DNA from: a virus
Lineage: Duplodnaviria; Caudoviricetes
Reading direction: 5' to 3' (one strand)
Virus record (IMG/VR): IMGVR_UViG_3300032163_000018
Coordinates: 1 to 55,527 of that record
DNA length: 55,527 nt
Position 1 is the first letter of the stretch. The number at the start of each line of letters is the position of its first letter. This document shows, piece after piece, positions 1 through 37,896 of the stretch. The position numbers were made by a program, and so were the translations under genes. The notes below the pieces were generated by a model, which was given only the letters and a program-made list of their open reading frames with translations, searched no databases and had not been told where the DNA came from.

Positions 1-1
1 G

Positions 2-1264
2 ACTATAAACGCTACTACCTTAACCACAACAGTAACTGGTGGATCTGGAGCTAACTTATCAATAACTCTAGCGGATCGTCGCACAATAAAAGATTTAGCT
101 GATTTTATAAATAGTCAAACAGGATACTCAGCTTCTGTTTCTACCGGATCTACTCAACTTCCTCCTTCAGCACTTGATCAAGTTTCTGCTTTAGGAATAT
201 GTTCTACCGGGTCTGATTTAGAACCAGGAAGAATTAAAAAATCATTATCAAATTTCGAGAACGCACTTAGTCAAAGCATTGCTGTAGATTTTACCGCAAC
301 AGCTACTAAAGGTCTTCCAGATGAGATGGCTTTTGTTGCTTATTTAAGCGGTGGAACATTAGGGGCTACTTTAGCTGCCGATGTTATCACTGCAATAGAT
401 AAAATGGAATCAATTAATACAAATTTCATAGTTCCTCTTTTTTCTAGAGATGCTTCTGAAGACATAACAGATGGATTAACAGATAGCTCATCTACTTATA
501 CTATTGCTGCTACTAATGCAGCAGTTAAGAGTCACGTTCTAAAAATGTCAACTTCTAAATTAAAAAAACATAGAAGCGCAATTTGTAGTATCTGGGGATC
601 ATATTCTGATGCGGCGGCTCAAGCTTCTAGCTTAGCAAACGCTAGAATTTCTCTTTGTATGCAGAAATCTTCTCAAGTTGATAGCTCTGGAACAATAGTT
701 AATCATTTTCCTTGGCACACATCGTGTATTGCTGCTGGTATGCAAGCTGCTGGATTCTACAAAGCAATTGTTAACAAACTTGCTAACGTAATAAGTTTTG
801 AAGATCCGTCAGGATTTGACTCTGGTAATCCAGGAGATGTTTCTGCCGCTATAGATGCAGGATTATTGTTCTTAGAACAAGCAATCGTAGGTAATAAATG
901 GATCTCAGATCAAACTACTTATGGAGTAGATACTAACTTTGTATATAACAGTATTCAAGCCATGTACGATGTAGATTTAGTTTCTTTAGATTTAAGTAAT
1001 AGTTTTCAGGTAGCTTTCGTTGGTAAATCACTTGCAGACGTAGATGCCAGTACTGCTCTTTCTTTCTTAGCTTCTAAGATGGAGAGTTATAAAAAACAAA
1101 AACTAATCGCAGCTTCTGACGATGCTCCATTAGGATTTAAAAATGCAAAAGTTAGTATAAATGGACCTATTTTAGAATTATCGCTAGAGATAAAACCAGC
1201 TTCTGCAATATATTTTATAGCTATCTCTATAGAGGTTTCTCAAGTACAGAGTAGTGCAGGTTAA
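2..1264 (+). CDS. Tail sheath protein (5' truncated by window edge)
   Basis: Frame is open from position 2, upstream of the track start at 326. The C-terminus has a sheath-like pattern (FVGK...YKKQKLI...LEIKPASAIYFIAISIEV). Directly precedes a tube-sized gene. Confidence 0.85.
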   Translation, partial: TINATTLTTTVTGGSGANLSITLADRRTIKDLADFINSQTGYSASVSTGSTQLPPSALDQVSALGICSTGSDLEPGRIKKSLSNFENALSQSIAVDFTATATKGLPDEMAFVAYLSGGTLGATLAADVITAIDKMESINTNFIVPLFSRDASEDITDGLTDSSSTYTIAATNAAVKSHVLKMSTSKLKKHRSAICSIWGSYSDAAAQASSLANARISLCMQKSSQVDSSGTIVNHFPWHTSCIAAGMQAAGFYKAIVNKLANVISFEDPSGFDSGNPGDVSAAIDAGLLFLEQAIVGNKWISDQTTYGVDTNFVYNSIQAMYDVDLVSLDLSNSFQVAFVGKSLADVDASTALSFLASKMESYKKQKLIAASDDAPLGFKNAKVSINGPILELSLEIKPASAIYFIAISIEVSQVQSSAG

Positions 1265-1305
1265 GAATAATGACAATTAATAAAATTATATTAAGGAGAT
1301 AATAT

Positions 1306-1764
1306 ATGGCTAAGGCAAAAGTATACACAGGTGCGAAAGCGAAAATTTTCGTAGACAACGTTTTAGTAGGAATATTTGATAGTTGCAGTTACTCTGTAAA
1401 CGTAGGAGCAGAACCTATTCATATTTTAGGTAGATTTGGTCCTGCTGAAATTACTCCAACTTCTGCTGAAGCAGTTACGGTATCTTGTACTGGTTTTAGA
1501 ATTATCGGAAATGGCGGACACGTTTTACCTAAATTCCCTAAACTTCAAGATCTTTTGCAATTAGAATCTGTTAGGTTAGATGTGATCACAAGAGATGGAT
1601 CTGCAACTCTACCTATTATGTCCGTATTCAATTGTATCCCTGTATCTTACAGTACGGGTGTTAATGCTAAATCAACTTCAAGAATTAATATTTCATACCT
1701 TGGAACGAATTCTAGCGATGAGAGTGGAGCATCGGATGAAGGGGATGCGGTTAATTTACCATAA
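1306..1764 (+). CDS. Tail tube protein
   Basis: 152 aa, AAGGAG RBS, follows the sheath. Tube-like motifs TGAKAKIFVD and EPIHILGRFGPAEI. Confidence 0.8.
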   Translation: MAKAKVYTGAKAKIFVDNVLVGIFDSCSYSVNVGAEPIHILGRFGPAEITPTSAEAVTVSCTGFRIIGNGGHVLPKFPKLQDLLQLESVRLDVITRDGSATLPIMSVFNCIPVSYSTGVNAKSTSRINISYLGTNSSDESGASDEGDAVNLP

Positions 1765-11834: not shown

Positions 11835-14339
11835 TTGGCAGATAATAAAGAAATCAGGATCAAGGCTATCATAGATACGGCAGACCTTGACGCACAAATA
11901 AGTCGTATCAAGCAAAAGATGACTCAAGCCACCTCAAGCGCACAAACGCTTCAAAGAGGTCAATCTATCGGTGCGTTTTCTCCTCAAACTCAAGCTTTGT
12001 TCGCCGGACAAGCTCAAAAATCATTCCATCAGTTACGTGAAGAATTCAACCTTTCCGAAAGACAATCAAGAAACATGGAAAAAGACATTAGAAATATAAC
12101 TTCTAGGGCTAATTCCATGAAAGACATAGCCACTAAAGAAAAAGAAGTTAATAAACTATTAGAAGATCGTGAAAAAATAGAAAATAGATTGATGCATATT
12201 AAAAAAGCTCAGGTTGGGTTTTTAGAACAAGCCAAGACTATTGATCCTAACTTATCTGGTTTTAGGATGGCTGGTGGAACACAGGGTCCAGAAGCCTTAG
12301 CTGGTGGAGGTAACTTTAACATAGGTAGGATGCAAAACTATCGTGGTTTTAGAGGCATGGGATTTGGTCAGGGTTTATCTAGGTTGTTAAGTTCAATGGG
12401 CGGTCCCATTGGCGTTTTAGGAGGTTTAGGAGCAGTTGCTAGTACTGGTGCTAACATAGGAATGTCAGTAGCAGATGAACTAGCTGAAAGACAGAGAAAC
12501 ATAGCTATGGCGCAAGGTTCTGCTATGAGTATGGCTGCTACGCCGTTAAGACAACAAATGGCTGGTAGAGGATATGAAGCTGCTATTTTTGCACCTGAAA
12601 GAGAAAGGGCGTTTGACACCGTTGGTAAGGAAATGGAGAGTAGGAGAGCTAGAGATATAACCAGAGGATTAAAAGATGCAGTTTCCGAAGGACTCTCCCA
12701 AGGTTTTAAATTCGCAATAGCCGGAGCGGCTGGTGGAGCCTTAGCTGGTGGAGTTGGAGCAGGTCCTGGAGCTATCGGCGGTGGATTACTAGGTTTTGGT
12801 ATGGGTGCCTTTGGTAAGATGGCTGATAAAGGTTTCCGTGGTGCTTTATTTAACACACAAGAATATAAAGCAGGATTAACAAGAGAAGGATTTGAAAAAC
12901 AACAACAACTAGAACAAGCTTACAAACTCTTAAACATGGATAAAACTTTAGGTTTTGAAGAGTTACAGCAAAATATGGAATTTTACAAAGGATTTGGTAG
13001 AACTTTTGGAACAAGTAGACCGACCACTAGAGGTGGATTGTTAGGCGGCATATTAGGTGCTGGTGTTAGCAGAGAAAGCGGTACGGATATTGCTACTCAG
13101 ATGATGGGCGCATCAGGTATGACAACAGGTCCCGGTCAAGTTGGTGATATAAAACAAGCTTTTATGTTAGGACAGGGCGGAATGACAAATGCCGGTACTG
13201 TTGTTGGTCGTATGCGTGGGTTAATGGGCGGCATGACAACTCAAGGTATTGACGAGGCGATGAGGCGACTTTTTTCTGAAGCTATGAAAGCAGGGATCAA
13301 CGATTCTAAAATGGTTGAGGAAATGCGTAAATTTACAGACGTCACCTCAGACTTAGCTTATAGACAAGGTGGATCTGACATAGCTAACGTTGCGTCAGAG
13401 TTTGGAAGAGGAATGATAGGAACTGGCGGTAGAGATATACAAGCAGCAGGAGCTGCCTATCAGATGAGAAATCAAGAAACTGGAAAATTAGGTGGATTGG
13501 AAGGAGCAATGAAATTCGCTTTTTCCGGTTCTACAGAAGGTAAGGAGATATTAGGAGGATTGTCGGGAAACTTTGAAGACACTTCTGCTTTTTTAGGATT
13601 AAACGTAGCAAATCTAGACCCAGGAAATCCACAAGTTAAGTATTTAATGAGTAAGATGGGAATAACTGATTTTGGGGAGTTTAAGGGTAGATGGCGTAAA
13701 GCACAAACATCTTCAACTAGTCCGAGAGGTGGAACTAGAGAGTTAATGACAAAACTTGGCGGATTAACGAGTGGACAAGATTTCGAAGCAGCGGTTGGAG
13801 GCGGCGGAGAAGCTCAAGACGTTTACGGACAATTAATTGGAGCGTTGGGAGTTGAAAGAGGCGAAGGATTTAGAACGTTAGGTCAACGTGAACAAGAATC
13901 TTACATCCGTTCTTTAGTAACCGGAGAAACTCCAGCAGATCAAGTTGGCGGAGCCGGATTAAAATCGGCTTTTGAACAACGTGGTGCAGAGAGTCCGTTT
14001 ACTAAATTAGAAGCAGCTACCGCAGCGGATCAGCGAGAATCAATGGGAAGATTAGATGATAATATCGACCAATTTGCTAAGGCTGCTGAAAATTCAGCGA
14101 GAGGTGCTGGCGAAGTTAACAAAGCTATGGAATTATTTAAAGGATCAATAGGACTCGGAGTGGAGTCTATGAATATATTAAGAGACGCAATGGTAGCTAT
14201 TCGTGAATACTCGCAAGGAGGAGATAAAGCTTCTCTTGACGCTAAATTAAAAGCCTTACAAAGCAAGATGACGGATCAACCTATAACTACTGGTAATAGT
14301 TCTTCATCTATATTCCAGAGAAGAATGTCAGGTAGATAA
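11835..14339 (+). CDS. Tape measure protein
   Basis: 834 aa, helical, Gly/Ala/Met-rich, IRIKAIID N-terminus, located between the chaperones and the hub. Confidence 0.7.
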   Translation: MADNKEIRIKAIIDTADLDAQISRIKQKMTQATSSAQTLQRGQSIGAFSPQTQALFAGQAQKSFHQLREEFNLSERQSRNMEKDIRNITSRANSMKDIATKEKEVNKLLEDREKIENRLMHIKKAQVGFLEQAKTIDPNLSGFRMAGGTQGPEALAGGGNFNIGRMQNYRGFRGMGFGQGLSRLLSSMGGPIGVLGGLGAVASTGANIGMSVADELAERQRNIAMAQGSAMSMAATPLRQQMAGRGYEAAIFAPERERAFDTVGKEMESRRARDITRGLKDAVSEGLSQGFKFAIAGAAGGALAGGVGAGPGAIGGGLLGFGMGAFGKMADKGFRGALFNTQEYKAGLTREGFEKQQQLEQAYKLLNMDKTLGFEELQQNMEFYKGFGRTFGTSRPTTRGGLLGGILGAGVSRESGTDIATQMMGASGMTTGPGQVGDIKQAFMLGQGGMTNAGTVVGRMRGLMGGMTTQGIDEAMRRLFSEAMKAGINDSKMVEEMRKFTDVTSDLAYRQGGSDIANVASEFGRGMIGTGGRDIQAAGAAYQMRNQETGKLGGLEGAMKFAFSGSTEGKEILGGLSGNFEDTSAFLGLNVANLDPGNPQVKYLMSKMGITDFGEFKGRWRKAQTSSTSPRGGTRELMTKLGGLTSGQDFEAAVGGGGEAQDVYGQLIGALGVERGEGFRTLGQREQESYIRSLVTGETPADQVGGAGLKSAFEQRGAESPFTKLEAATAADQRESMGRLDDNIDQFAKAAENSARGAGEVNKAMELFKGSIGLGVESMNILRDAMVAIREYSQGGDKASLDAKLKALQSKMTDQPITTGNSSSSIFQRRMSGR

Positions 14340-16258
14340 TGTCTGATTCACCATTTACACAATCAATTAGAAAAAACACAGAAGATTCGCATCAAGCGAG
14401 TCCGGCATATGTTATTACTTTTGTTAGATGGGCAAATAGAGATCCGGTAAATTATCAAGATCCACAAAACCCAAACACAGACCCAACACAACAAGTTAGA
14501 GAACCCTTAGTTGTTATAAACGATTGTATCAGTTTAAACGCAGGTAATTCTAAATCAGGATTAAGTTCTAGTTGTACAGCAACTTTGTTAGCTGGTGAGA
14601 TTAATTATTCTACCGCCGTTCATCCGGGCGATTACATGATAGTTAATATGTTAAACTATGAATCAGATGCGGTTAAGGTAGCTCAAAAAGCTTTAGCACA
14701 ACATCCGATAAATAAATACGAAGATGGCTTTAAGGGTGTCTATAAGATACAGAAAGTTAGAAGACGTTTAGTCGTTAATCCAGAGAGCGGCGTTAAACAG
14801 GTAGCTTATACTGTTCACGCTTTTGGCTTTACAGAGTTAAACACTGTAATATATTACAATCCAGCCATATCTGAAAAATTTGCTAATTCTGATGTTCTAT
14901 TTATAGCACAGTTTGCTGATTTTTGGAATCAATTCGCTACTTCTAAAGATAACACTAGGAAAGTACAAATAGTGTTGAAATACTTAATTCAGGCTATATT
15001 AGGCAAAGGAATAAATAGAAACGATTTTACTATTCCAGCTACGCAAAATAATCAATTCATAATTCCTCAATTGTTAGGTAAATTACTTAACCGACCAATA
15101 TCTAAAGTTGCTACTGATATTTACAATTTCTATTTTGGTATATGGAGTTTGGCAACCGGATCTACAAACGAAACCCCAGGACAAAACTTTAACAGTATGT
15201 TTGAACAGTGGGATCAAGATAGTAATTTTTACAGAGTTAAGGGCAATAGAGAAATGCAAGGATGGCGTTTATTAGCTGCTGAGAATTGGAACTTTAAGCA
15301 GATATGGTCTATATTAAGTTCTTACCTTAACGGTGCGATAAATGAAATGTACACAACTTATAGAGTTGGTCCTGACAATTTTGTTTATCCATCTATAATA
15401 GCCAGACAAAAGCCTTTTAGCTCGGATCACTTTTTAAATCCAAATAGAATTAATAACGTAGATAATTTACCAGCAGTTAACACAACTCATACTAAATTTT
15501 CTTCTTTACCTAGATGGAGGATTTCTCCTGATTTATTGTATGATATTGACTTAGGTAAAGACGAAGCATCTAGAGTTAATTTTGTACAAGTTTTTGGTCG
15601 CAGTATAGCGGCTTCTGATCAAGAGAATCAAGCATCTCAGATAGGGCTTGGTAACTTTTTCTTTAATCCTATAGACGTTAAAAGACACGGATTAAAACCT
15701 TCAGTTATAACAACTGAGTTTGATTTCCCTGGCGGAACTGGTGAAAACGTCAAACAATCAAGAGCTTGGGCTTACTTGTTGTTTGATATGATGTATGCTG
15801 GAGAGTTAAGAGAATCTGGGACTTTAACTTTTTACGGGATACAAGATCCTATTTCTGTTGGCGATAATATAGAATTTGACAATAACATATATCACATAGA
15901 ATCAATAAACCATATATTTCAAATAGCACCAGACGGCAAGAAGTTTTTTAGAACTTCATTAACTTTATCTTTTGGCACTAGTCTTGATAGTGATGATACG
16001 GCTCCTGTTTATCCTCAAATGGAAAACACATTTGCAGACAACGAAAGAGCTGATGATTACACTAACGAAAGAATATTGCCAGGGAATTCAGACACTCAAG
16101 ATATTCCATATGATTCTACTAGAAAATATGGTGAAAAAATTAGAGACGGTGTTGATAAATCGTTTACGTTGGATGAAAACGTTAAGCCTAGAATTTCTAG
16201 TATAGAATATCAAGATGACGGAAGCAGCGATAATAAGAAAAAGAAAGGTAAGAAGTAA
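14339..16258 (+). CDS. Baseplate hub protein (gp27/gpD-like)
   Basis: Follows the tape measure. C-terminal GTLTFYGIQDPISVGDNIEFDNNIYHIESINH..T.L.L motif. Confidence 0.7.
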   Translation: MSDSPFTQSIRKNTEDSHQASPAYVITFVRWANRDPVNYQDPQNPNTDPTQQVREPLVVINDCISLNAGNSKSGLSSSCTATLLAGEINYSTAVHPGDYMIVNMLNYESDAVKVAQKALAQHPINKYEDGFKGVYKIQKVRRRLVVNPESGVKQVAYTVHAFGFTELNTVIYYNPAISEKFANSDVLFIAQFADFWNQFATSKDNTRKVQIVLKYLIQAILGKGINRNDFTIPATQNNQFIIPQLLGKLLNRPISKVATDIYNFYFGIWSLATGSTNETPGQNFNSMFEQWDQDSNFYRVKGNREMQGWRLLAAENWNFKQIWSILSSYLNGAINEMYTTYRVGPDNFVYPSIIARQKPFSSDHFLNPNRINNVDNLPAVNTTHTKFSSLPRWRISPDLLYDIDLGKDEASRVNFVQVFGRSIAASDQENQASQIGLGNFFFNPIDVKRHGLKPSVITTEFDFPGGTGENVKQSRAWAYLLFDMMYAGELRESGTLTFYGIQDPISVGDNIEFDNNIYHIESINHIFQIAPDGKKFFRTSLTLSFGTSLDSDDTAPVYPQMENTFADNERADDYTNERILPGNSDTQDIPYDSTRKYGEKIRDGVDKSFTLDENVKPRISSIEYQDDGSSDNKKKKGKK

Positions 16259-19668: not shown

Positions 19669-19813
19669 ACACTATCTCCCTTGCTTGTTTTAAAAGCTCC
19701 ATATTAGTTGGATATACATCTGAGTCAAAGTCTAAAAGATCCAAAACCTCATCTTTAGTTACGCCTTCTTTTTTGAGATTTCTAAACCATAAAATCAATT
19801 CTTGTAAATTCAT
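19661..19813 (-). CDS. 50-aa hypothetical protein (not in ORF track)
   Basis: MNLQELILWFRNLKKEG..., with an AGGAGA RBS and a promoter just upstream. Confidence 0.6.
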   Translation of the reverse strand: MNLQELILWFRNLKKEGVTKDEVLDLLDFDSDVYPTNMELLKQAREIVYE

Positions 19814-19831
19814 ATATTCTCCTAAAATCAG

Positions 19832-19871
19832 TATATCACATCCAAAAATAATGTCAACTTCAACAAAATGT
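19832..19871 (-). promoter_or_regulatory. Sigma70 promoter, copy 1 of a 40-bp direct repeat
   Basis: TTGACA-16 bp-TATACT with TG extension; 40 bp identical to 20587-20626. Confidence 0.8.
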
Positions 19872-19967
19872 GTTTATATACAACTTTTAATTCTTGGTCA
19901 TTGTGATTTGTCTAACTTTCAATTTTTCTACCCATTTGAAATTCCTCTTGTAATACTTAATTAGTTT

Positions 19968-20213
19968 TTATACTTCCTCAACATCGACCTTTTTTAGTGA
20001 TCTTACAACTTGTAGTTGTGATTTCAGTTCCGAAATATCATTTAAAATATCACTAATACATGCTCTTTTAGCTTCTTGAAATGTGTTAAATGCTTCATAG
20101 CGCCCCATGTTTAAAAAATGATTGTATTTCATATCTACACCAATTAAAGATTTGTAAACATTGTAATCAGCCCCTTGTTGATAAACAGAATAATATTTCA
20201 TTTTCATTTTCAT
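19968..20213 (-). CDS. Hypothetical protein
   Basis: 81 aa, ATGA overlap. Confidence 0.6.
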   Translation of the reverse strand: MKMKMKYYSVYQQGADYNVYKSLIGVDMKYNHFLNMGRYEAFNTFQEAKRACISDILNDISELKSQLQVVRSLKKVDVEEV

Positions 20214-20428
20214 TTTTTACTCCTAGATTTTAAAAGCATTTTAATTATCCTGTTGTGAAAGACATCTATAGCATGACTTATTTCTTTTTGTTCTTGTTGT
20301 GTCATTGCATGCCATTCATGACTATATCTTTCATAGTAGTAATCAGTTATATTATCTAGATCACTGTATAACATTTCTACGGCCCACTGTTTAGGTGTTA
20401 ACTTTTTATCCATATATTTAATTGTCAT
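20210..20428 (-). CDS. Hypothetical protein
   Basis: 72 aa, coupled overlaps on both sides. Confidence 0.6.
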   Translation of the reverse strand: MTIKYMDKKLTPKQWAVEMLYSDLDNITDYYYERYSHEWHAMTQQEQKEISHAIDVFHNRIIKMLLKSRSKK

Positions 20429-20544
20429 AGTTTGCTCTCTTTTAATAATTCCAAAAATTTACTAGAAAATAACGGTTTGAATCTTGTACTCCTTGTTTCA
20501 TCTTCCCAATAGAAGCCATGCGTTATTTTTTCTAAGTCAATCAT
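20425..20544 (-). CDS. 39-aa hypothetical protein (not in ORF track)
   Basis: AGGAGG RBS; ATGA overlap with the 20428 gene. Confidence 0.5.
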   Translation of the reverse strand: MIDLEKITHGFYWEDETRSTRFKPLFSSKFLELLKESKL

Positions 20545-20586
20545 AAACATCCTCCTTTGTCTAATCAAACAATCCTATTTCATAAT

Positions 20587-20626
20587 TATATCACATCCAA
20601 AAATAATGTCAACTTCAACAAAATGT
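20587..20626 (-). promoter_or_regulatory. Sigma70 promoter, copy 2 of the 40-bp direct repeat
   Basis: TTGACA-16 bp-TATAAT with TG extension. Confidence 0.8.
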
Positions 20627-20740
20627 ATTTAATAATAATATCGCAACACGTTTTAATAAGTCCATATTTGGCACGTTACCTATGCTTATTATGTAGTTGA
20701 GTTGACGATAATGTCAATTCAGATGCTTAATGAATTCATG

Positions 20741-21175
20741 TTAAATATGTGACGCAAGTTCTTGATAATAGTAGCCTTTGTTATAAATGTAACAGCCAGA
20801 TGACCCAAACGTAGTTGGATACATTATACTTAAAGGGCATCCATTCATGCTTTTACCTGTATTATGTCCAAGTCCTAACACACAGTGACCAAGTTCGTGC
20901 ATTATTAGTATCTCTTTTTGATCATCGCTAGCCATAGACCAGTAAACAGGATCTATTTGAATTACTCTAACGCCGTTCCCATAAGTTAAGCATTGACCTA
21001 TTGTAGGTAATGGTAATACTTCAAATTCAGCACCGATATTAACTGGGTTTACTCCTATATAATTATGAAATCTATTAAAATATTCATCAAACTCTGGATC
21101 AACAGAAATTGAATGTTGTTCCATGTAAGTTTGTTTACCACATGCGACTAACAATAATAGTATTATAAATCTCAT
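20741..21175 (-). CDS. Lipoprotein metzincin (matrixin-like) Zn metalloprotease
   Basis: LLVAC lipobox, HELGHCVLGLGH (HExxHxxxxxH), SIMYP Met-turn. Confidence 0.8.
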   Translation of the reverse strand: MRFIILLLLVACGKQTYMEQHSISVDPEFDEYFNRFHNYIGVNPVNIGAEFEVLPLPTIGQCLTYGNGVRVIQIDPVYWSMASDDQKEILIMHELGHCVLGLGHNTGKSMNGCPLSIMYPTTFGSSGCYIYNKGYYYQELASHI

Positions 21176-21180
21176 AATTT

Positions 21181-21208
21181 ATTATACCATATTTAGACAA
21201 ATTATCAA
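21181..21208 (-). promoter_or_regulatory. Sigma70 promoter giving a probable leaderless mRNA
   Basis: TTGATA-16 bp-TATAAT with TGG extension, ending 5 nt before the ATG at 21175. Confidence 0.6.
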
Positions 21209-21400
21209 CTTTTATGGTAATATGATGTATGGCGAAAAATCAATCACTTACATTATTAGGATATGTCAATTTTTTAGTCATTAGATGGATAAAAATACAA
21301 TATATGAATAAGATTACAGAAGCTCACATATTAACCTTACCACACTGGGACATAGCTCAATCAATGTATAAGGGTCTTGTCTTATATATAAAGGAATCGT

Positions 21401-21955
21401 ATGCTTAATAAAATTGTAGAACTGCTAATCGCTTTTATGCCCCTAATCCTATCCTTTGTCTTTATAGGTATAGCTTACGTTAAGAATAAAAACTTAATGA
21501 GAATAGACTGGGCAACTGTTAAGAAAGTAACTTTAATAGTTTTATTAGCTAAACTAGTGAATATAGGCATAATAGATCTACAAGTACATCTGGGGTTAGT
21601 TAGTAAGATCCAATTATTGGAAGGCACTCAGATGCCAATGCCGTTTTGGTGGTTTTTCATGGTCTTTTGGGAAGACGGGTTTTATGGCTTAGTTATCTAT
21701 TATTTAATGGAAGTTGATAAAATATTGCCTAAGTTTGTTAAAAAAATCATTATATTTGGTATTTGCTTTAACTTTATGTTAGGACATTTGTATCAAGGAG
21801 CTATAGGAATGTTGGCAATCCTGTATCCTTTTTATATTAGTTATAAATACGGTAAAAAGAACGGATTCGGTACTGTAATGATTTGTCATATTTTGTTTGA
21901 CTTAATAAGTTACATGATGTATAGTTTCTATGTGAAGGTAATTTTATGGGGATAA
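21401..21955 (+). CDS. CPBP (CAAX/Abi family) intramembrane glutamic protease
   Basis: Multiple TM helices; WED..., F..GH and H...D motifs. Confidence 0.75.
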   Translation: MLNKIVELLIAFMPLILSFVFIGIAYVKNKNLMRIDWATVKKVTLIVLLAKLVNIGIIDLQVHLGLVSKIQLLEGTQMPMPFWWFFMVFWEDGFYGLVIYYLMEVDKILPKFVKKIIIFGICFNFMLGHLYQGAIGMLAILYPFYISYKYGKKNGFGTVMICHILFDLISYMMYSFYVKVILWG

Positions 21956-21996
21956 AATAAACAACGCATCTTGTAAATTAATAAAGGATATGTAAA

Positions 21997-22143
21997 ATGG
22001 ACAAGTTACAATTAATAAATACAATCGTTAGCGGACTATTGTCTATGCTTTTAAGTAAGACGGGCATTGTTAATATAGCATTTAAAGTCTTATTTATGGT
22101 ATTATTTGTATATAATGTACTTAGATTAGCAGGAAGAGTATAA
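21997..22143 (+). CDS. 48-aa membrane protein (not in ORF track)
   Basis: AAGGA RBS, hydrophobic, on the operon strand. Confidence 0.45.
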   Translation: MDKLQLINTIVSGLLSMLLSKTGIVNIAFKVLFMVLFVYNVLRLAGRV

Positions 22144-22148
22144 AAAGT

Positions 22149-22364
22149 ATGACTAAAAAAGAATTTGAACAACTAGGCAAAAATATTCTTAAATGGAAAC
22201 GTGAGTACTATAAACTAGGTAACCCATCTATTTCTGACGTAACTTATGATTATCAAGAATATCTATATGCTCAAGAAGCTACTAAGAGAAAGATCGAGAA
22301 GAATGAATTAGGTCAAATGGAAGATGGGAAGTTTTATATTAACGTTGGATATGTAGGAGAATAA
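22149..22364 (+). CDS. Stand-alone NAD-dependent DNA ligase domain Ia-like protein
   Basis: EYYKLGNPSISDVTYD matches the LigA YY...P.ISD.EYD motif. No KxDG active site. Confidence 0.7.
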   Translation: MTKKEFEQLGKNILKWKREYYKLGNPSISDVTYDYQEYLYAQEATKRKIEKNELGQMEDGKFYINVGYVGE

Positions 22365-22365
22365 A

Positions 22366-22566
22366 ATGAATACGCCAACCCTAGACCCATACAAGTTTGA
22401 CTATGATGATGTTATCGAATGGGTTGTTGACTCACTACAAAGAAAGTGTCTATCAACCAAATTCCTATATAGGGTGTATAGAAATGGGGAGTATAAGACA
22501 TGGACACAGGTTTTAAGCTATGAAATGGTTAAAGTTGATTTATTTACAATGAGGTACAAGTGCTAA
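22366..22566 (+). CDS. Hypothetical protein
   Basis: 66 aa, AGGAG RBS. Confidence 0.55.
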   Translation: MNTPTLDPYKFDYDDVIEWVVDSLQRKCLSTKFLYRVYRNGEYKTWTQVLSYEMVKVDLFTMRYKC

Positions 22567-22682
22567 AACAAAACAAAGATTCTCACGACCAATTCAAAAC
22601 ACAACAAGAAATTTGGGAATTTTTATCTGCTAATGAAAATAATAAAATTATTCAAAATTGTGATTTTAGGGATACAAAATGA
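22560..22682 (+). CDS. 40-aa hypothetical protein (not in ORF track)
   Basis: GAGG RBS, GTG start, ATGA overlap with the 22679 gene. Confidence 0.4.
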   Translation: MLKQNKDSHDQFKTQQEIWEFLSANENNKIIQNCDFRDTK

Positions 22683-22978
22683 AACTCGAACCAATTGTAA
22701 AAAATTCAGATGGCACAATTCACCACATGACTCATTATGAGGCATTAGAATATTGTGCGAAAAACAATTGTCGATTGCCAACACTCGATGAATTAATTAA
22801 TTTTTATAGCGATGAGGATTATATTAAAAATGAAGATGATAAAAATTTGTTTTGGTCGTCGTCAGTCAATCCTAATGATCCTTACGTCGCCTACGTCTTC
22901 TATGGCTTCAATGGTGTCATCTACTACGTCAGCCGCTACTTCAAAGATGCGGTCCGCTGCGTGGAAGAAAATAAATGA
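22679..22978 (+). CDS. C-type lectin-fold (DUF1566/FGE-like) protein, DGR target-like
   Basis: EALEYC...RLPTLDEL...FWSSS...AY.F...G.......AVRCV signature. Confidence 0.8.
   Translation: MKLEPIVKNSDGTIHHMTHYEALEYCAKNNCRLPTLDELINFYSDEDYIKNEDDKNLFWSSSVNPNDPYVAYVFYGFNGVIYYVSRYFKDAVRCVEENK
22853..22963 (+). other. Putative DGR variable region (VR)
   Basis: About 51% GC; 21 of 37 codons end in C (TAC, GTC, TTC, AGC), consistent with AAC-derived codons. Confidence 0.65.
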
Positions 22979-23184
22979 AAATCGAATTGACCACTGTGTA
23001 TGAAAATGTGGATGATGATTTTTTAAAATATTATATTGAACAGATTATGCCTGTAGTCCCTATAAATTATTACGCCTTTAAACAAGGTGTTCTATGCATA
23101 TTCAAAAGCAGAGATCCTGATACAAAAAGTAAAGTCACAGTCACTACAACTTATAAACTAACAAAGGATAAATTAAATGAGTGA
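22975..23184 (+). CDS. Hypothetical protein
   Basis: 69 aa, ATGA overlap. Confidence 0.55.
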   Translation: MKIELTTVYENVDDDFLKYYIEQIMPVVPINYYAFKQGVLCIFKSRDPDTKSKVTVTTTYKLTKDKLNE

Positions 23185-23231
23185 ACAAAAAGAGAGTTTT
23201 GAGGAATGGCAAAACTAACAAAGGAAAATAT

Positions 23232-23615
23232 ATGACTCAAGAACAGAAGCAAAAGTCTATGATTAAGAAATTTAGGAAGGAACCAATTGTTATAGAAGCT
23301 GCACAATGGTTCAAAAATGGGGACCACCCAAATGATGATTGTGAAATTTTTATTGACGATGAAACAAAATTGCCTTTTTTGGGTGAGGGCAAAATTGTTC
23401 GCTACTTTAGACATCCTGATATAAGTGGTGAATTAATCTGTGTAAGTTCTATGTCTTGTGGACATGCTATGCATTTACATGGTTGGATTGACACTCCAGA
23501 AGGTGGGCATAATGTATGCCCAGGTGATTGGATCATCACTGGTATTGCTGGGGAAAATTACCCATGTAAACCAGTCATTTTCGCAAAAACGTATAAAGAA
23601 GTTGAATTAACTTAA
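23232..23615 (+). CDS. Conserved phage protein (PGDYG-like)
   Basis: FRKEPIVIEAAQW...TPEG...PGDWII...YPCKP.IF.KTY. Start moved to the ATG after an AAGGA RBS. Confidence 0.75.
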   Translation: MTQEQKQKSMIKKFRKEPIVIEAAQWFKNGDHPNDDCEIFIDDETKLPFLGEGKIVRYFRHPDISGELICVSSMSCGHAMHLHGWIDTPEGGHNVCPGDWIITGIAGENYPCKPVIFAKTYKEVELT

Positions 23616-23629
23616 TAAAGGGATAATAA

Positions 23630-23932
23630 ATGAAATTTGAGGAATGGCAAAATAAAGAAGCATTAAAATTTACTTTTGTGGATTTTTTATCTATGATGGA
23701 TAGTGGTAGAAGATATGCAAAATTAGCATGGGATTATCAGCAATCCCGCATTGAGGAATTGGAAAAGGAACAGGTAGACCACATTGAAATTTTATCTAAT
23801 GAATATTATAAAAAATATGAAAAACTACAAGTAGAAAATGCTCAGTTAAGAGAGGCACTTAAACTCTATGTCAATGATTTTGGCGGCAAAAGTGCTCATG
23901 TAGTATTAGCAAAATCGGATAAGAAAGAATGA
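23630..23932 (+). CDS. Hypothetical phage coiled-coil protein
   Basis: FEEW...AWDYQQSRIEELE pattern. Confidence 0.65.
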   Translation: MKFEEWQNKEALKFTFVDFLSMMDSGRRYAKLAWDYQQSRIEELEKEQVDHIEILSNEYYKKYEKLQVENAQLREALKLYVNDFGGKSAHVVLAKSDKKE

Positions 23933-24240
23933 AAACAATTAAATCAATAACCTCTGCCGCTATTTTAGAGCTAACGCTTGCTCAATTAAACTTTATAGAT
24001 GGCTTATATTGGAATGATGAAAAATTATCTATACAAGAAAAGATTGAAAATTTTATGGTTGGATGTGTTGTAAGTTTTAATGACCCAGAAGAAGTATTAA
24101 AATCCGTTAAAATAGCAGATCTAGCAGATCTAGATGATGTGGATGATCTTTTAGAAACGGCAAAATCTCTAGACTTATATTTCGGACCTAGCATAGAAGT
24201 ATTGGAATATTTTAAAAGAGAATTGGAGAATAAGAAATGA
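23929..24240 (+). CDS. Hypothetical acidic protein
   Basis: 103 aa, coupled overlaps. Confidence 0.6.
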   Translation: MKTIKSITSAAILELTLAQLNFIDGLYWNDEKLSIQEKIENFMVGCVVSFNDPEEVLKSVKIADLADLDDVDDLLETAKSLDLYFGPSIEVLEYFKRELENKK

Positions 24241-24617
24241 AATTTGACGATAAAATTAAAGAAATAAAAAAAGCTCTTCTAGAAAATAAATTCGTTATTT
24301 CCCTAAGAAACTCTGGGAAAACATCTGCTTTGGCTGAAATTTTAATAGAAAATAGACGTGCTATCGTGATCACTCCTAACTATAGACAAAAACAACGACT
24401 TATCGAATTGTTACGCTCTAAATATAATGCTATGAGTAAACAAATCGAAAGGAGAATAGTTCCGAGTTACATAGCGAACGATAGAAACTATTTTATTGGG
24501 TTGGAAAGAGATATTTTAGATAATATATACGTAGATGAATATTTTATAAGTTCTTATAGGGGTCCGTATAAAAGTGCAGTTAGTTCACTTCCATATAATA
24601 CAAAAGAGATTAAATAA
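24237..24617 (+). CDS. Minimal P-loop protein (terminase/helicase ATPase-like fragment)
   Basis: RNSGKTS Walker A and YVDE Walker B in only 126 aa. Confidence 0.6.
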   Translation: MKFDDKIKEIKKALLENKFVISLRNSGKTSALAEILIENRRAIVITPNYRQKQRLIELLRSKYNAMSKQIERRIVPSYIANDRNYFIGLERDILDNIYVDEYFISSYRGPYKSAVSSLPYNTKEIK

Positions 24618-24618
24618 C

Positions 24619-25044
24619 ATGAAAATTAAAGTACTTATACTAGATGACAACTATGTAGATAGAAATAACTCTATTATGCCAACTAACGCAGATATATTAT
24701 TTTTTGAAGATATTACTCTAACTACTGATTTTAGTAAACCAATAGGTAACGCTAAGTTATCTAGAGAAGGTAATGAGTTTTATATACAAAAAATTCAATT
24801 AATTGATGAGTTTAAAGAACAGATGCTTCTCTTAGTTCCTGCCGTAGGCGGTTCTTTATTAGAAAGAAAGGGCAACGTGTATACAAAATTTAAGATAAAT
24901 ATCGTAAATTTACAGATTAATCCAAATGCTGATGATAGAATCCTATCAATAGGAGAACAATTGAATTTACAGAAAAAGAAGGGCTTGACAGATAATGAGG
25001 AATATGATAAACTACCTACAGACAAAGAAGATATAGAGGAATAA
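24619..25044 (+). CDS. Hypothetical protein (weak prohead-protease-like motifs)
   Basis: DFSKPIG and NPNADDRIL. Start moved to the second Met. Confidence 0.5.
   Translation: MKIKVLILDDNYVDRNNSIMPTNADILFFEDITLTTDFSKPIGNAKLSREGNEFYIQKIQLIDEFKEQMLLLVPAVGGSLLERKGNVYTKFKINIVNLQINPNADDRILSIGEQLNLQKKKGLTDNEEYDKLPTDKEDIEE
24985..25013 (+). promoter_or_regulatory. Sigma70 promoter
   Basis: TTGACA-17 bp-TAAACT with TG extension. Confidence 0.65.
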
Positions 25045-25065
25045 CATGGAAACAAGGGGGATAAA

Positions 25066-25563
25066 ATGAAACCATTGCTAAAAATTGACTATCAAAGAAT
25101 CGGCGAGAAGAGTTTACTAACTAAACCTGTTTATATTGATGAGAAAGTTAGAGAATATTTAAAAAGTAAAGAGCGGAGATTATGTTTACATGAAGATATA
25201 AAAATAGGGCAAGGACACTCTGATATTGTTTTAAGTATAGGTTATCGTAGGATTTATGCTGGTGCTGAAAATGCCGAAACTTTCGATAATGTAAAAGAAA
25301 GAGAAGATTTTATTCTCGGTCTTGATTATGTTAATTCTGAGTTTATTAGTTTGCCAGAAGAAAAAGGTAAGGAGACATATTCTGAATCGTTTCCTCTGTT
25401 AACACAAGAAGATGTAGAAGCAGCAATATCAGCAGTGGCGGCCATTAATGGCAGCGAAAAAGGCACAGCAGAAGAACATAGTGCCCCCTATAGGGCAAGA
25501 TCTCAGTCGGATATAATGCGTTATTTAATCAACCAGATAGGACCTAAGAACGATGAACTTTAA
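25066..25563 (+). CDS. Hypothetical protein
   Basis: 165 aa, AAGGGGG RBS. Confidence 0.65.
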   Translation: MKPLLKIDYQRIGEKSLLTKPVYIDEKVREYLKSKERRLCLHEDIKIGQGHSDIVLSIGYRRIYAGAENAETFDNVKEREDFILGLDYVNSEFISLPEEKGKETYSESFPLLTQEDVEAAISAVAAINGSEKGTAEEHSAPYRARSQSDIMRYLINQIGPKNDEL

Positions 25564-25771
25564 AAAAATACTACAGCTCATGCTGGATACCAGTAATACT
25601 AGAGACTATGAGACTATAGAAAATGCCTTTTTCCTTGGTGCAAGTGCTATGATGATTGAGATGAAGAAGGCTTATGAAACTGGTAACATGGAAATATTAG
25701 AAGAGATTGAAGAGTCGCTTCAAGAAAGGCTTGTTGATTTAAACAATAAACCCAAGATAAACGTACATTAG
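25553..25771 (+). CDS. Hypothetical protein
   Basis: 72 aa, overlaps the previous gene. Confidence 0.6.
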   Translation: MNFKKILQLMLDTSNTRDYETIENAFFLGASAMMIEMKKAYETGNMEILEEIEESLQERLVDLNNKPKINVH

Positions 25772-25781
25772 TAGAACTAGT

Positions 25782-25994
25782 ATGAAAGTAAAAGAATTGA
25801 TTGAAAAATTACAAAATTTACCACAAGATCATGAGGTTTATCTTAGGAAATCAATAATGAAAAATGAAGATCTTGATAGTAACCTTGATGTTAAGGTCAA
25901 TAGGGTGTTTGTAGGAAACGCCTTAATTAAATATTTAGATAGTCAAGATGGACTCGATATGGCTGAATATGTAAGAGCTGTTTTGGTGGAATAA
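25782..25994 (+). CDS. Hypothetical phage protein
   Basis: MKVKELIEKLQNLPQDHEV, a common phage N-terminal motif. Confidence 0.7.
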   Translation: MKVKELIEKLQNLPQDHEVYLRKSIMKNEDLDSNLDVKVNRVFVGNALIKYLDSQDGLDMAEYVRAVLVE

Positions 25995-26009
25995 ACAGAT
26001 TAATCCACA

Positions 26010-26153: not shown

Positions 26154-26789
26154 ATGCAAATTAACAGAGAAATACTTAAGAATTTTAATCCATGTCTTGA
26201 TCGTTACAAAAATTATCTTGAAAATTATCCTAATTTCGACGGATCATTTGATGAATTTCTTGATTTAAATAATATTACATATAATGATAAAATATGGGTT
26301 GCTCAAAGAGTCTTGAATAAAAATCAATTAATTCGTTTTGCACTTCTTTGTGCCGAAAGCGTTTTACATATCTTTGAGGAAAAATACCCAGAAGATAAAA
26401 GACCAAGAGATTGTATTGAATATTTGATGAAGATTGATGATTTTTCAAATTTAACAGATGAACAAAGAGAAGAGATTTTAAAACATAAAAATGCTGCTTC
26501 TTCTGCTTCTTCTGCTGCTTATGCTGCTGCTTATGCTGCTTCTTCTGCTGCTGCTTATGCTGCTACTTATGCTGCTGCTGATGCTGCTGATGCTGCTGCT
26601 TATGCTGCTGCTGATGCTGCTAATGCTGCTGCTGCTAATGCTGCTTATGCTTATGCTGCTGCTTATGCTGCTGATGCTTATGCTGCTGCTGATGCTGCTG
26701 CTTATGCTGCTGCTTATGCTGCTGCTGCTGCTAGATTAGATCAACAGAATCTTAATATTCAGTTTCTCAAAATGGCAGCTAGTTTGTAA
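26154..26789 (+). CDS. Imm5-like domain protein with Ala-rich tract, paralog 1
   Basis: ALLCAESVLHIFE...PEDKRPR motif; close paralog at 37171. Confidence 0.7.
   Translation: MQINREILKNFNPCLDRYKNYLENYPNFDGSFDEFLDLNNITYNDKIWVAQRVLNKNQLIRFALLCAESVLHIFEEKYPEDKRPRDCIEYLMKIDDFSNLTDEQREEILKHKNAASSASSAAYAAAYAASSAAAYAATYAAADAADAAAYAAADAANAAAANAAYAYAAAYAADAYAAADAAAYAAAYAAAAARLDQQNLNIQFLKMAASL
26493..26732 (+). repeat. GCT-based trinucleotide tract (80 codons, all NNT)
   Basis: Only GCT, TCT, TAT, GAT, AAT and ACT codons. Confidence 0.9.
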
Positions 26790-37170: not shown

Positions 37171-37896
37171 ATGCAAATTAACAAAGAAGTATTAAAAAGT
37201 CTCGACCCGTGTTCAGATCGTTACAAAAACTATCTTGAAAATTATCCTAATTTCGACGGATCATTTGATGAATTTCTTGATCTTGAAAACATTACTCATA
37301 ATGATAAAATTTGGGTTGCTAAAAGAGTATTAAATACAAATCAAATAGTACATTTTGGATTATTATGTGCCCAAAGTGTTTTACATATCTTTGAGGAAAA
37401 ATATCCAGAAGATAAAAGACCAAGAAATTGTATTGAATATTTAATAAAAATTGATGATTTTTCAAAAGTAACAGATGAACAAAGAGAAGAAATTTTAAAG
37501 CATAGAGACGCTGCTGCCGATTCTTATGCTGTTTATGCTGCTGCTAATGCTGCTGTTTATACTGCTGCTAATGCTGCTGTTTATGCTGCTGATACTGCTG
37601 CTAATGCTGCTGTTTATGCTGCTGATGCTGATGCTGCTGCTGTTTATGCTGCTGCTAATGCTGCTGTTTATGCTGCTGATACTGCTGCTAATGCTGCTGT
37701 TTATGCTGCTGATGCTGATGCTGCTGTTTATGCTGCTGCTAATGCTGCTGTTTATGCTGCTGATACTGCTGATACTGCTGCTAATGCTGCTGTTTATACT
37801 GCTGTTTATGCTGCTGATGCTGATGCTGATGCTGCTGCTCGATTAAACCAGCAAAATCTTAATATTCAGTTTTTAAAAATGGCGGCTAGTTTGTAA
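37171..37896 (+). CDS. Imm5-like domain protein with Ala-rich tract, paralog 2
   Basis: N-terminal ~110 aa and the QQNLNIQFLKMAASL tail closely match the 26154 gene. Confidence 0.7.
   Translation: MQINKEVLKSLDPCSDRYKNYLENYPNFDGSFDEFLDLENITHNDKIWVAKRVLNTNQIVHFGLLCAQSVLHIFEEKYPEDKRPRNCIEYLIKIDDFSKVTDEQREEILKHRDAAADSYAVYAAANAAVYTAANAAVYAADTAANAAVYAADADAAAVYAAANAAVYAADTAANAAVYAADADAAVYAAANAAVYAADTADTAANAAVYTAVYAADADADAAARLNQQNLNIQFLKMAASL
37510..37839 (+). repeat. GCT-based trinucleotide tract (110 codons) with AANAAVY higher-order units
   Basis: NNT codons throughout except one GCC. Confidence 0.9.

Follow-up and report, generated by a model that had tools for sequence, protein, structure and literature searches.

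Is the end of a very small accessory gene in a phage genome the variable region (VR) of a diversity-generating retroelement (DGR), and, if so, where are the other parts of the element? This question is raised by a gene of 99 codons on a myovirus-like phage contig, whose last 37 codons before a short tail differ sharply in composition from the rest. The stretch of DNA analysed, hereafter the window, is the whole contig of 55,527 nucleotides (55.5 kb). ORFs are cut at both of its ends, its completeness is about 35% according to CheckV, and the assembly consists of this contig alone. As the window represents about 35% of the genome, the absence of a template repeat (TR) or of an RT speaks for the window and not for the whole phage.

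DUF1566 proteins are a recognised class of DGR targets. They account for 51 of the 372 DGRs described in PMC5758913 and are recognised as a class in PMC4159848 as well. In viruses, DGR targets are mostly tail or receptor-binding proteins, according to PMC8144416.

A small lectin-fold gene with a step in composition

The gene lies at 22679..22978 on the plus strand and encodes a stand-alone Lcl_C/DUF1566 protein of 99 amino acids that ends in EENK, followed by the stop codon; ATGA overlaps join it to both flanking ORFs. A C-type lectin fold had been proposed for it, and this is borne out by a family match, a structural model and a structure search. Residues 17-95 align with positions 31-116 of the 117 positions of the Pfam Lcl_C profile (PF07603, E 3.2e-6), the score of 27.9 bits lying under the gathering cut-off of 34.9, and a six-frame search of the contig recovers Lcl_C at 26.5 bits. 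At the level of the alignment, the relation to Lcl_C/DUF1566 may be called sub-threshold yet clear. The AF2 model, built on a 41-sequence alignment, has a mean pLDDT of 94.2 and a pTM of 0.84. Its top Foldseek match in the PDB is 8q4e_A, the C-terminal domain of Legionella Lcl (E 4.4e-4, TMq 0.68), and C-type lectins and link modules come next. This domain of Legionella pneumophila Lcl, the best structural match, belongs to the same Pfam family and is 21% identical to the phage protein. Lcl differs, however, in being a secreted adhesin with a collagen-like region, not reported as a DGR target, whereas the phage protein scores below the Pfam cut-off.

The signature RLPT.DEL / WSSS / VRCV is found as RLPTLDEL at residues 32-39, WSSS at 59-62 and VRCV at 92-95, as had been read from the sequence. 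The WSSS...VRCV scaffold is common throughout the family, which counts 165 relatives at E<=1e-3. By inspection, the N-terminus MKLEPIVKNSDG has no hydrophobic stretch, in agreement with the earlier description of 99 amino acids without a signal peptide, and in this the phage protein is unlike the bacterial relatives P0003, P0009, and P0016, which start with signal-like sequences. It is probably a minimal C-type-lectin-fold binder of the cytoplasm, and would bind its ligand inside the cell.

The gene belongs to a block of small genes (17.6-45.7 kb) located between the tail sheath module and the baseplate module. Its description as a member of the early genes was checked for position only, and this position is the small-gene block between the two structural modules. 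What is unusual about this gene is its bare, signal-less domain within such an accessory block. Other features of the region are as follows. A 75-nt direct repeat, 80% identical, occupies 19802-19876 and 20557-20631. In a contig of run X2 (depth 12.9), position 19823 is linked to 20587 through 12 other letters and 763 nt of the window are lacking, apparently owing to a deletion between the repeat copies by which three small ORFs of the minus strand are lost. Two Imm5-like paralogues, 26154..26789 and 37171..37896, are 83% identical over their first 300 nt or so and terminate in extended arrays of GCT-rich units of 9 and 12 nt (Ala/Tyr/Asp-rich), which differ in length; contigs of runs X1 and X2 are cut at 26487-26736, within the first paralogue. 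Finally, the only part of 20000-26000 with DNA matches to isolated phages is 23467-23594, in ORF 23181..23615 (phrog_419). This widely shared small domain is 72-82% identical to phages of Rhodococcus, Shewanella, Salmonella, and Cobetia.

Within the 99-codon gene, the constant part, codons 1-58 (22679..22852, plus strand), has 29.3% GC and 7 of its 58 codons end in C. Codons 59-95 (22853..22963, plus strand; WSSSV...AVRCV) form a segment of 111 nt with 51.35% GC, as compared to 33.3% for the contig. The third bases of its 37 codons are C in 21 cases, T in 9, G in 5, and A in 2. Contig-wide, 10.5% of codons end in C (16,481 codons in 77 ORFs), and at this background the binomial probability of at least 21 C-endings out of 37 is 7e-12. 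Among 13,709 sliding windows of 37 codons, more than 12 C-endings are found in the Lcl_C-like gene only. The 51% GC and the 21 C-ending codons from which the original prediction started were thus recovered (51.4% on recomputation) and lie far beyond chance. The segment uses TAC, GTC, and TTC, whereas codons 1-58 and the contig as a whole use TAT, GTT, and TTT. This synonymous flip inside a single gene rules out selection at the protein level as its cause. Moreover, the segment is C-terminal in a CLec-fold domain and 30 of its 37 codons are NNC or NNT, as for codons derived from AAY.

For GC content alone, the segment ranks 129th among the 55,417 windows of 111 nt. The most GC-rich patches of the contig, with up to 57.7% GC, are at 12635-14051, where ORF 11835..14339 has Gly/Ala/Arg-rich coding. 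This ORF encodes a tail-module protein of 834 amino acids that has no family match, is not rich in C-ending codons, and is probably the tape measure. These patches were considered as possible kin of the segment and rejected, as Gly/Ala-rich coding accounts for them; GCT repeats are the other GC-rich stretches.

Template searches, close orthologues, and a mosaic junction

The original prediction had seen no template, RT, or downstream hairpin, and this holds within the 55.5-kb window. On both strands, the best ungapped match tolerating differences at adenines reaches 93 of 126 positions and the best exact one 59 of 126, so that no TR-like copy is found in the window; 8- to 12-mers of the segment form no clusters elsewhere on the contig. 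RVT_1 is matched by none of 76 ORFs, nor in a six-frame search at E<=1, and no Avd was found in the window. The DNA 3' of the stop codon forms no stable hairpin (-6.8 kcal/mol, z -0.30). Real TR/VR pairs are found by this type of script, as shown by a positive control: in G107, a viral contig of 16.2 kb, a canonical FGE-type pair (L034; 10052-10173 and 12312-12433, 2,260 nt apart) adjoins an RT, and its mismatches fall at template adenines in 16 of 16 cases.

In the public collections of viral and metagenome contigs (viral_contigs and metagenome_contigs), two queries from the 5' edge of the VR, a 48-nt pattern masked with N and an unmasked 20-mer, gave 0 exact-word matches; these scans are exact rather than adenine-tolerant, and miss a template edge that differs by one base. 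Five phage records are related to the window through a baseplate protein (about 43-51% identity), two of them at least 96% complete. Neither RVT_1 nor Lcl_C is found in any of the five (0/5 each), and these phages are too distant to settle the DGR question.

Relatives of the 99-aa protein itself are rare. Protein and alignment scans of viral_contigs and metagenome_contigs gave no match, nor did a tblastn search against 50,697 phage records; its 184-aa upstream neighbour has no relatives in viral_contigs. In collections of 5.8 and 1.8 billion proteins, the only small, phage-type orthologues are P0002 (97 aa, 73% identity, on a contig of 138,853 bp) and P0005 (94 aa, 61% identity, on a contig of 2,813 bp). 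In the three phage orthologues, A71, Y72, V73, and F74 are invariant, and the template guessed in the original prediction consequently calls too many N positions. Residues 1-40 of P0002 are identical to those of the 99-aa protein (P0001). P0002 then differs at 9 of the 18 linker residues (codons 41-58) and at 16 of the 37 residues of the segment, and the C-termini differ as well. The comparison of P0001 with P0002 was therefore rejected as evidence for DGR activity: divergence is as strong in the linker as in the VR, and the P0002 locus lacks the downstream gene.

Right after AVR, the three phage orthologues end in different ways, CVEENK, VVKL, and LKYE, and two of the three lack the Cys codon that lies inside the GC-rich 14-mer described below. 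These diverging ends and the lack of Cys argue against a conserved IMH in the phage lineage.

The flanks of the gene show the same discontinuity. Upstream, a 66-aa ORF (22366..22566, plus strand) is 100% identical on the related 138,853-bp contig. Downstream, a search of 5.8 billion proteins with a 69-aa ORF (22975..23184, plus strand) gave no homologue but the protein itself. Run X2 has one contig that spans 20668-22619 with 7 letters other than those of the window, and the next one spans 22625-22907 with 25. With a conserved left flank, a right flank devoid of homologues, and the divergence of both P0002 and X2, the gene lies across a mosaic junction, which starts close to codon 41. The X2 piece is aligned up to 22907 and its record runs 256 letters further, a hint that the X2 copy diverges near that position. 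Depth is low at 23006-25900 in both runs and zero in X1 over 20870-22738, but such holes prove nothing. In another X2 contig, with a depth of only 1.98, 19853 and 24232 are linked through 18 other letters; this contig may come from a variant without these 4.4 kb, which include the Lcl_C gene, or be an error at this depth.

Related segments in bacteria and in a second phage

A scan of species-representative genomes led to a single locus (L007) in the MAG G006, where a secreted homologue of 169 amino acids is 39% identical to the phage protein. With the last 171 nt of its gene as query, four further copies were found in G006, four in G007, and one in G011, and 3 of the 101 relatives searched carry matches. 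With the phage segment as query, matches were obtained in 15 of 401 genomes of the phylum of G006; the closest bacterial VR DNA is 67-82% identical to the phage VR. The bacterial copies have a common plan. A conserved 5' edge, TGGTCGTCGTCGGTC, is followed by about 30 codons, mostly NNC or NNT, and by a GC-rich 3' edge, GCGGTCCGYTGCGT. Then come two to three codons, the stop codon, and GCGTGG, and, 25-35 nt beyond GCGTGG, a GC-rich hairpin with a variable loop (GAAA, GGAG, GAAC). According to PMC5758913, the IMH is an element of 34 bp of which the first 14 are GC-rich, often followed by a GC-rich inverted repeat, though inverted repeats are present in 127 of the 372 DGRs only. Judged from its layout, the plan of the bacterial copies is the anatomy described in that paper for DGR VRs having an IMH and an inverted repeat.

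How much of this anatomy is shared by the phage gene? Along its entire length of 37 codons, the phage segment is collinear with six bacterial VRs, and their C-ending codons, 18-20 out of 37, are matched in share by the phage segment. The 5' edge of the latter, TGGTCGTCGTCAGTC (22853..22867, plus strand), is DNA common to the bacterial VRs with G for A at one base, and it uses TCG codons, which are rare in the phage (52 of 1226 Ser codons). At the other end, the GC-rich 14-mer GCGGTCCGCTGCGT (22949..22962, plus strand) is common to the 3' edge of the bacterial VRs and resembles the first element of the IMH as defined in PMC5758913. Likeness to the bacterial IMH-like tail ends at 22962. Beyond it, the phage gene has neither the next 20 nt or so of the bacterial copies nor their hairpin; the bacterial tail (VV-x-R, stop, GCGTGG, hairpin) is replaced by an AT-rich tail encoding EENK and the stop (22964..22978, plus strand), which lacks GCGTGG and overlaps the start codon region of the next gene. 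The constant half of the gene has the composition of the phage, whereas the VR has the C-ending share of the bacterial ones; compared with the time that the gene has spent in AT-rich phages, the segment was therefore written recently.

Among the six bacterial VRs (15 pairs), differences at the first, second, and third codon positions number 219/198/108, most of them at the first two, as compared to 151/123/142 in the 26 upstream codons. Between the phage segment and the bacterial ones, the counts are 86/67/71 in six comparisons. Third positions thus differ as often as the others, and none of the six bacteria is therefore a recent donor. The copy of G011 keeps many Asn codons (NPNN...FNGNNGNI) and, to judge from these codons, looks close to the template state. 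Two observations had been named beforehand as speaking against a DGR, the lack of a template-like copy and a variation of the relatives mainly at third positions; the first was made within the genomes and collections searched, the second was not.

Among the bacterial copies read, no cognate TR was found. The only RT of G006 has a template of the FGE-sulfatase type that does not match the VR (84/126), and G007 has no RT. No matching template lies beside the RT of G011, which we provisionally took for a group II intron from the length and context of its ORF, and the RT flanks of G246 and G384 do not match the VR either. As these genomes are draft MAGs, missing templates are weak evidence. Two further loci of G006 may be described here. 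A 3-kb contig (L008, G006:C55:1-2990) carries a compact DGR cassette made up of an HRDC-like ORF (2..316), an Avd-like ORF (313..684), an RT (681..1697), and a template at about 1685-1849, the HRDC and Avd labels being assigned by eye rather than by family scan; the target of its Asn-rich, FGE-sulfatase-type template was not found. L013 (G006:C65:538-575) is a lone copy of the 3' tail of the bacterial VRs, with the last codons, the stop, and GCGTGGTCTTTAG; the DNA upstream holds no recognisable VR or Lcl_C domain, and L013 may, from its sequence, be the remnant of a truncated target.

A second phage has been found by scanning with a nine-sequence alignment. G108 is a viral contig of 74,890 bp, 37.5% GC and 87% complete, that carries three paralogous signal-less Lcl_C genes of about 130 aa each (L030-L033): copy A at 1..261 (plus strand, cut by the contig start), copy C at 15557..15955 (plus strand), and copy B at about 65.1 kb (minus strand). 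All show the step in composition: GC rises from 31-35% in the upstream part to 47-60% between WSSSV and the stop codon. Over the 93 nt that precede the VR, copies A and B do not differ at all; in the first 21 codons of the VR they have 5 differences (1/4/0 by codon position). Copies A and C differ by 11/12/4 in the VR vs. 2/1/6 upstream (Fisher p 0.006), with adenine on one side in 19 of the 27 VR differences. Within the first 21 VR codons, every difference in the three pairs involves adenine (5/5, 4/4, and 7/7). To the extent that sequences can tell, this is the pattern left by adenine mutagenesis. G108, at its 87% completeness, gives no RVT_1 match and no template-like copy. A 27-mer of its VR edge matches only itself in the viral collection, and a bacterial copy in G381 has almost identical edge DNA. 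With three paralogues, adenine-type differences, and no RT, G108 is a second example, and the segment of the window is thus not a one-off.

Origin of the segment and its significance

The segment is probably a DGR-type variable region in origin, its membership being unproven. The codon signature, the anatomy of the family, and the G108 paralogues favour this origin. Hence, of the DGR-type reading put forward originally, the codon signature proved real and gained support at the level of the family; the template was found in none of the collections searched. In the mechanism that we propose, the last 37 scaffold codons would be a VR of the CLec2/DUF1566 class. cDNA of a template repeat rich in AAC and AAT would be copied into the segment with random bases opposite the template adenines, leaving NNC and NNT codons between fixed scaffold codons (WSSSV-P, AYVF-G, G-I, R, AVRCV). 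We infer that a DGR wrote the copy at 22853-22963, and that this DGR is phage-borne. The phage genome itself would be its substrate, either now or until a short time ago, with RT, Avd, and template in the roughly two-thirds of the genome outside the contig, the gene being a non-adjacent target. We give this last step, a non-adjacent target of a DGR acting now or recently on the phage genome, a little less than an even chance. It is favoured by C-endings that have not decayed in a gene otherwise adapted to AT, and by the recurrence of the step in G108. It is disfavoured by the missing IMH tail and hairpin, by the unconserved 3' end, and by the failure of the searches to find a template or a phage-borne RT.

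Known systems offer partial precedents. DUF1566/DUF823/Fib_succ_major targets (CLec2 VR class; type Legionella LdtA) have, like the phage gene, a C-type-lectin fold according to PMC5758913, and share with it, as described there, a variable region made of the last 35-40 residues or so, NNC/NNT codons between fixed residues, and a GC-rich 3' element. Unlike these systems, the phage contig has no TR, RT, Avd, full IMH, or inverted repeat, and the protein is a bare 99-aa domain without lipoprotein or secretion signal. Non-adjacent targets have been documented for phage-associated elements, mostly less than 50 kb from the RT, in the account of PMC5758913. The Bacuni phages of Bacteroides uniformis, as presented in PMC8143477, have two DUF1566/Fib_succ_major targets, one of them far from the DGR core. 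Their VR is the last 35 aa and, as proposed here, a DUF1566-type target is not adjacent to RT, Avd, and TR. However, the genome of the Bacuni phages itself contains RT, Avd, and TR, and TR-VR pairs have been demonstrated there, whereas none of these parts is found on the present contig.

The segment may otherwise be a frozen variant, captured or recently orphaned. Its VR would have been written by a DGR in another genome, or the DGR would have been lost, and nothing would rewrite it now; it would have entered by recombination at the conserved edges, and the protein would work with one fixed binding surface. Several observations fit. The IMH-like tail and hairpin have given way to AT-rich sequence overlapping the start of the next gene, the gene sits at a mosaic junction between an upstream protein that is 100% identical and a downstream one without homologue, the C-termini of the three orthologues diverge directly after AVR, and RT and TR are found neither in the window nor in the 87%-complete G108. 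In addition, phages that keep DGR targets after loss of the DGR have been reported (bioRxiv 10.1101/2024.10.15.618418). As that report describes them, targets persist without a DGR in Toutatisvirus phages, as on the present contig; however, those are DUF6273 targets beside tail genes, thought to be receptor-binding, whereas the present gene encodes a small Lcl_C protein and belongs to an accessory block. Against a frozen variant, the C-ending share has not decayed toward the 10.5% of the contig while the other half of the gene is fully AT-adapted, so that capture or loss must be very recent. The same step in three G108 paralogues would then need repeated recent events, and no donor was found, the closest bacterial VR DNA being just 67-82% identical. 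We therefore regard a frozen variant as possible, albeit on the unlikely side.

An explanation without any DGR would make the protein an ordinary Lcl_C domain, with C-terminal strands rich in Tyr, Val, Phe, Gly, and Asn and a GC-rich tail due to horizontal origin or local bias. The WSSS...VRCV scaffold is indeed family-wide, third positions vary too among the bacterial paralogues (108 differences in 15 pairs), and a TR was found for none of the approximately 20 VR-like copies read in phages and bacteria. However, amino acid composition explains neither the synonymous preference for C over T nor third bases that are C in 21 cases vs. G in 5, the differences in the first 21 VR codons of G108 all involve adenine while copies A and B are identical upstream, and the DNA 3' of the stop is conserved among the bacterial paralogues. 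This explanation is quite improbable. It is very improbable that the phage provides only the target, without the retroelement, and that the DGR of its host acts on this gene in trans while the phage infects the cell or resides in it as a lysogen: the DNA-level matches to the phage VR in 15 of 401 genomes of the phylum of G006, the presence in both G006 and G007 of at least four such paralogues whose 3' tails are conserved, the likeness of the G108 VR edge to the copy in G381, and the lack of an RT on the two phage contigs with such genes speak for it, but the phage copies are without the bacterial IMH-like tail and hairpin needed for homing in the systems studied according to PMC5758913, no host template was found, and remote targets are not expected for phage-associated DGRs from the account in PMC5758913.

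A DGR acting on the phage genome remains the preferred reading. A broader idea, which we consider improbable, is that signal-less C-type-lectin proteins of 100-130 aa form a family in the accessory regions of AT-rich phages, made hypervariable by retroelements located elsewhere, perhaps by a host DGR, and serving as intracellular binders.

Should the segment be a frozen relic, it would still record, as a clean marker, that a DGR acted in the past and that modules were exchanged at a mosaic junction. The parallel with G108 raises a testable question, namely where the template lives. If the preferred reading is true, targeted hypermutation would extend to phage functions inside the cell, via an apparently cytoplasmic lectin-fold protein. 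What would be diversified, provided that the protein is an intracellular binder, is then a binder directed, for example, against targets of host defence or takeover, rather than a tail fibre.
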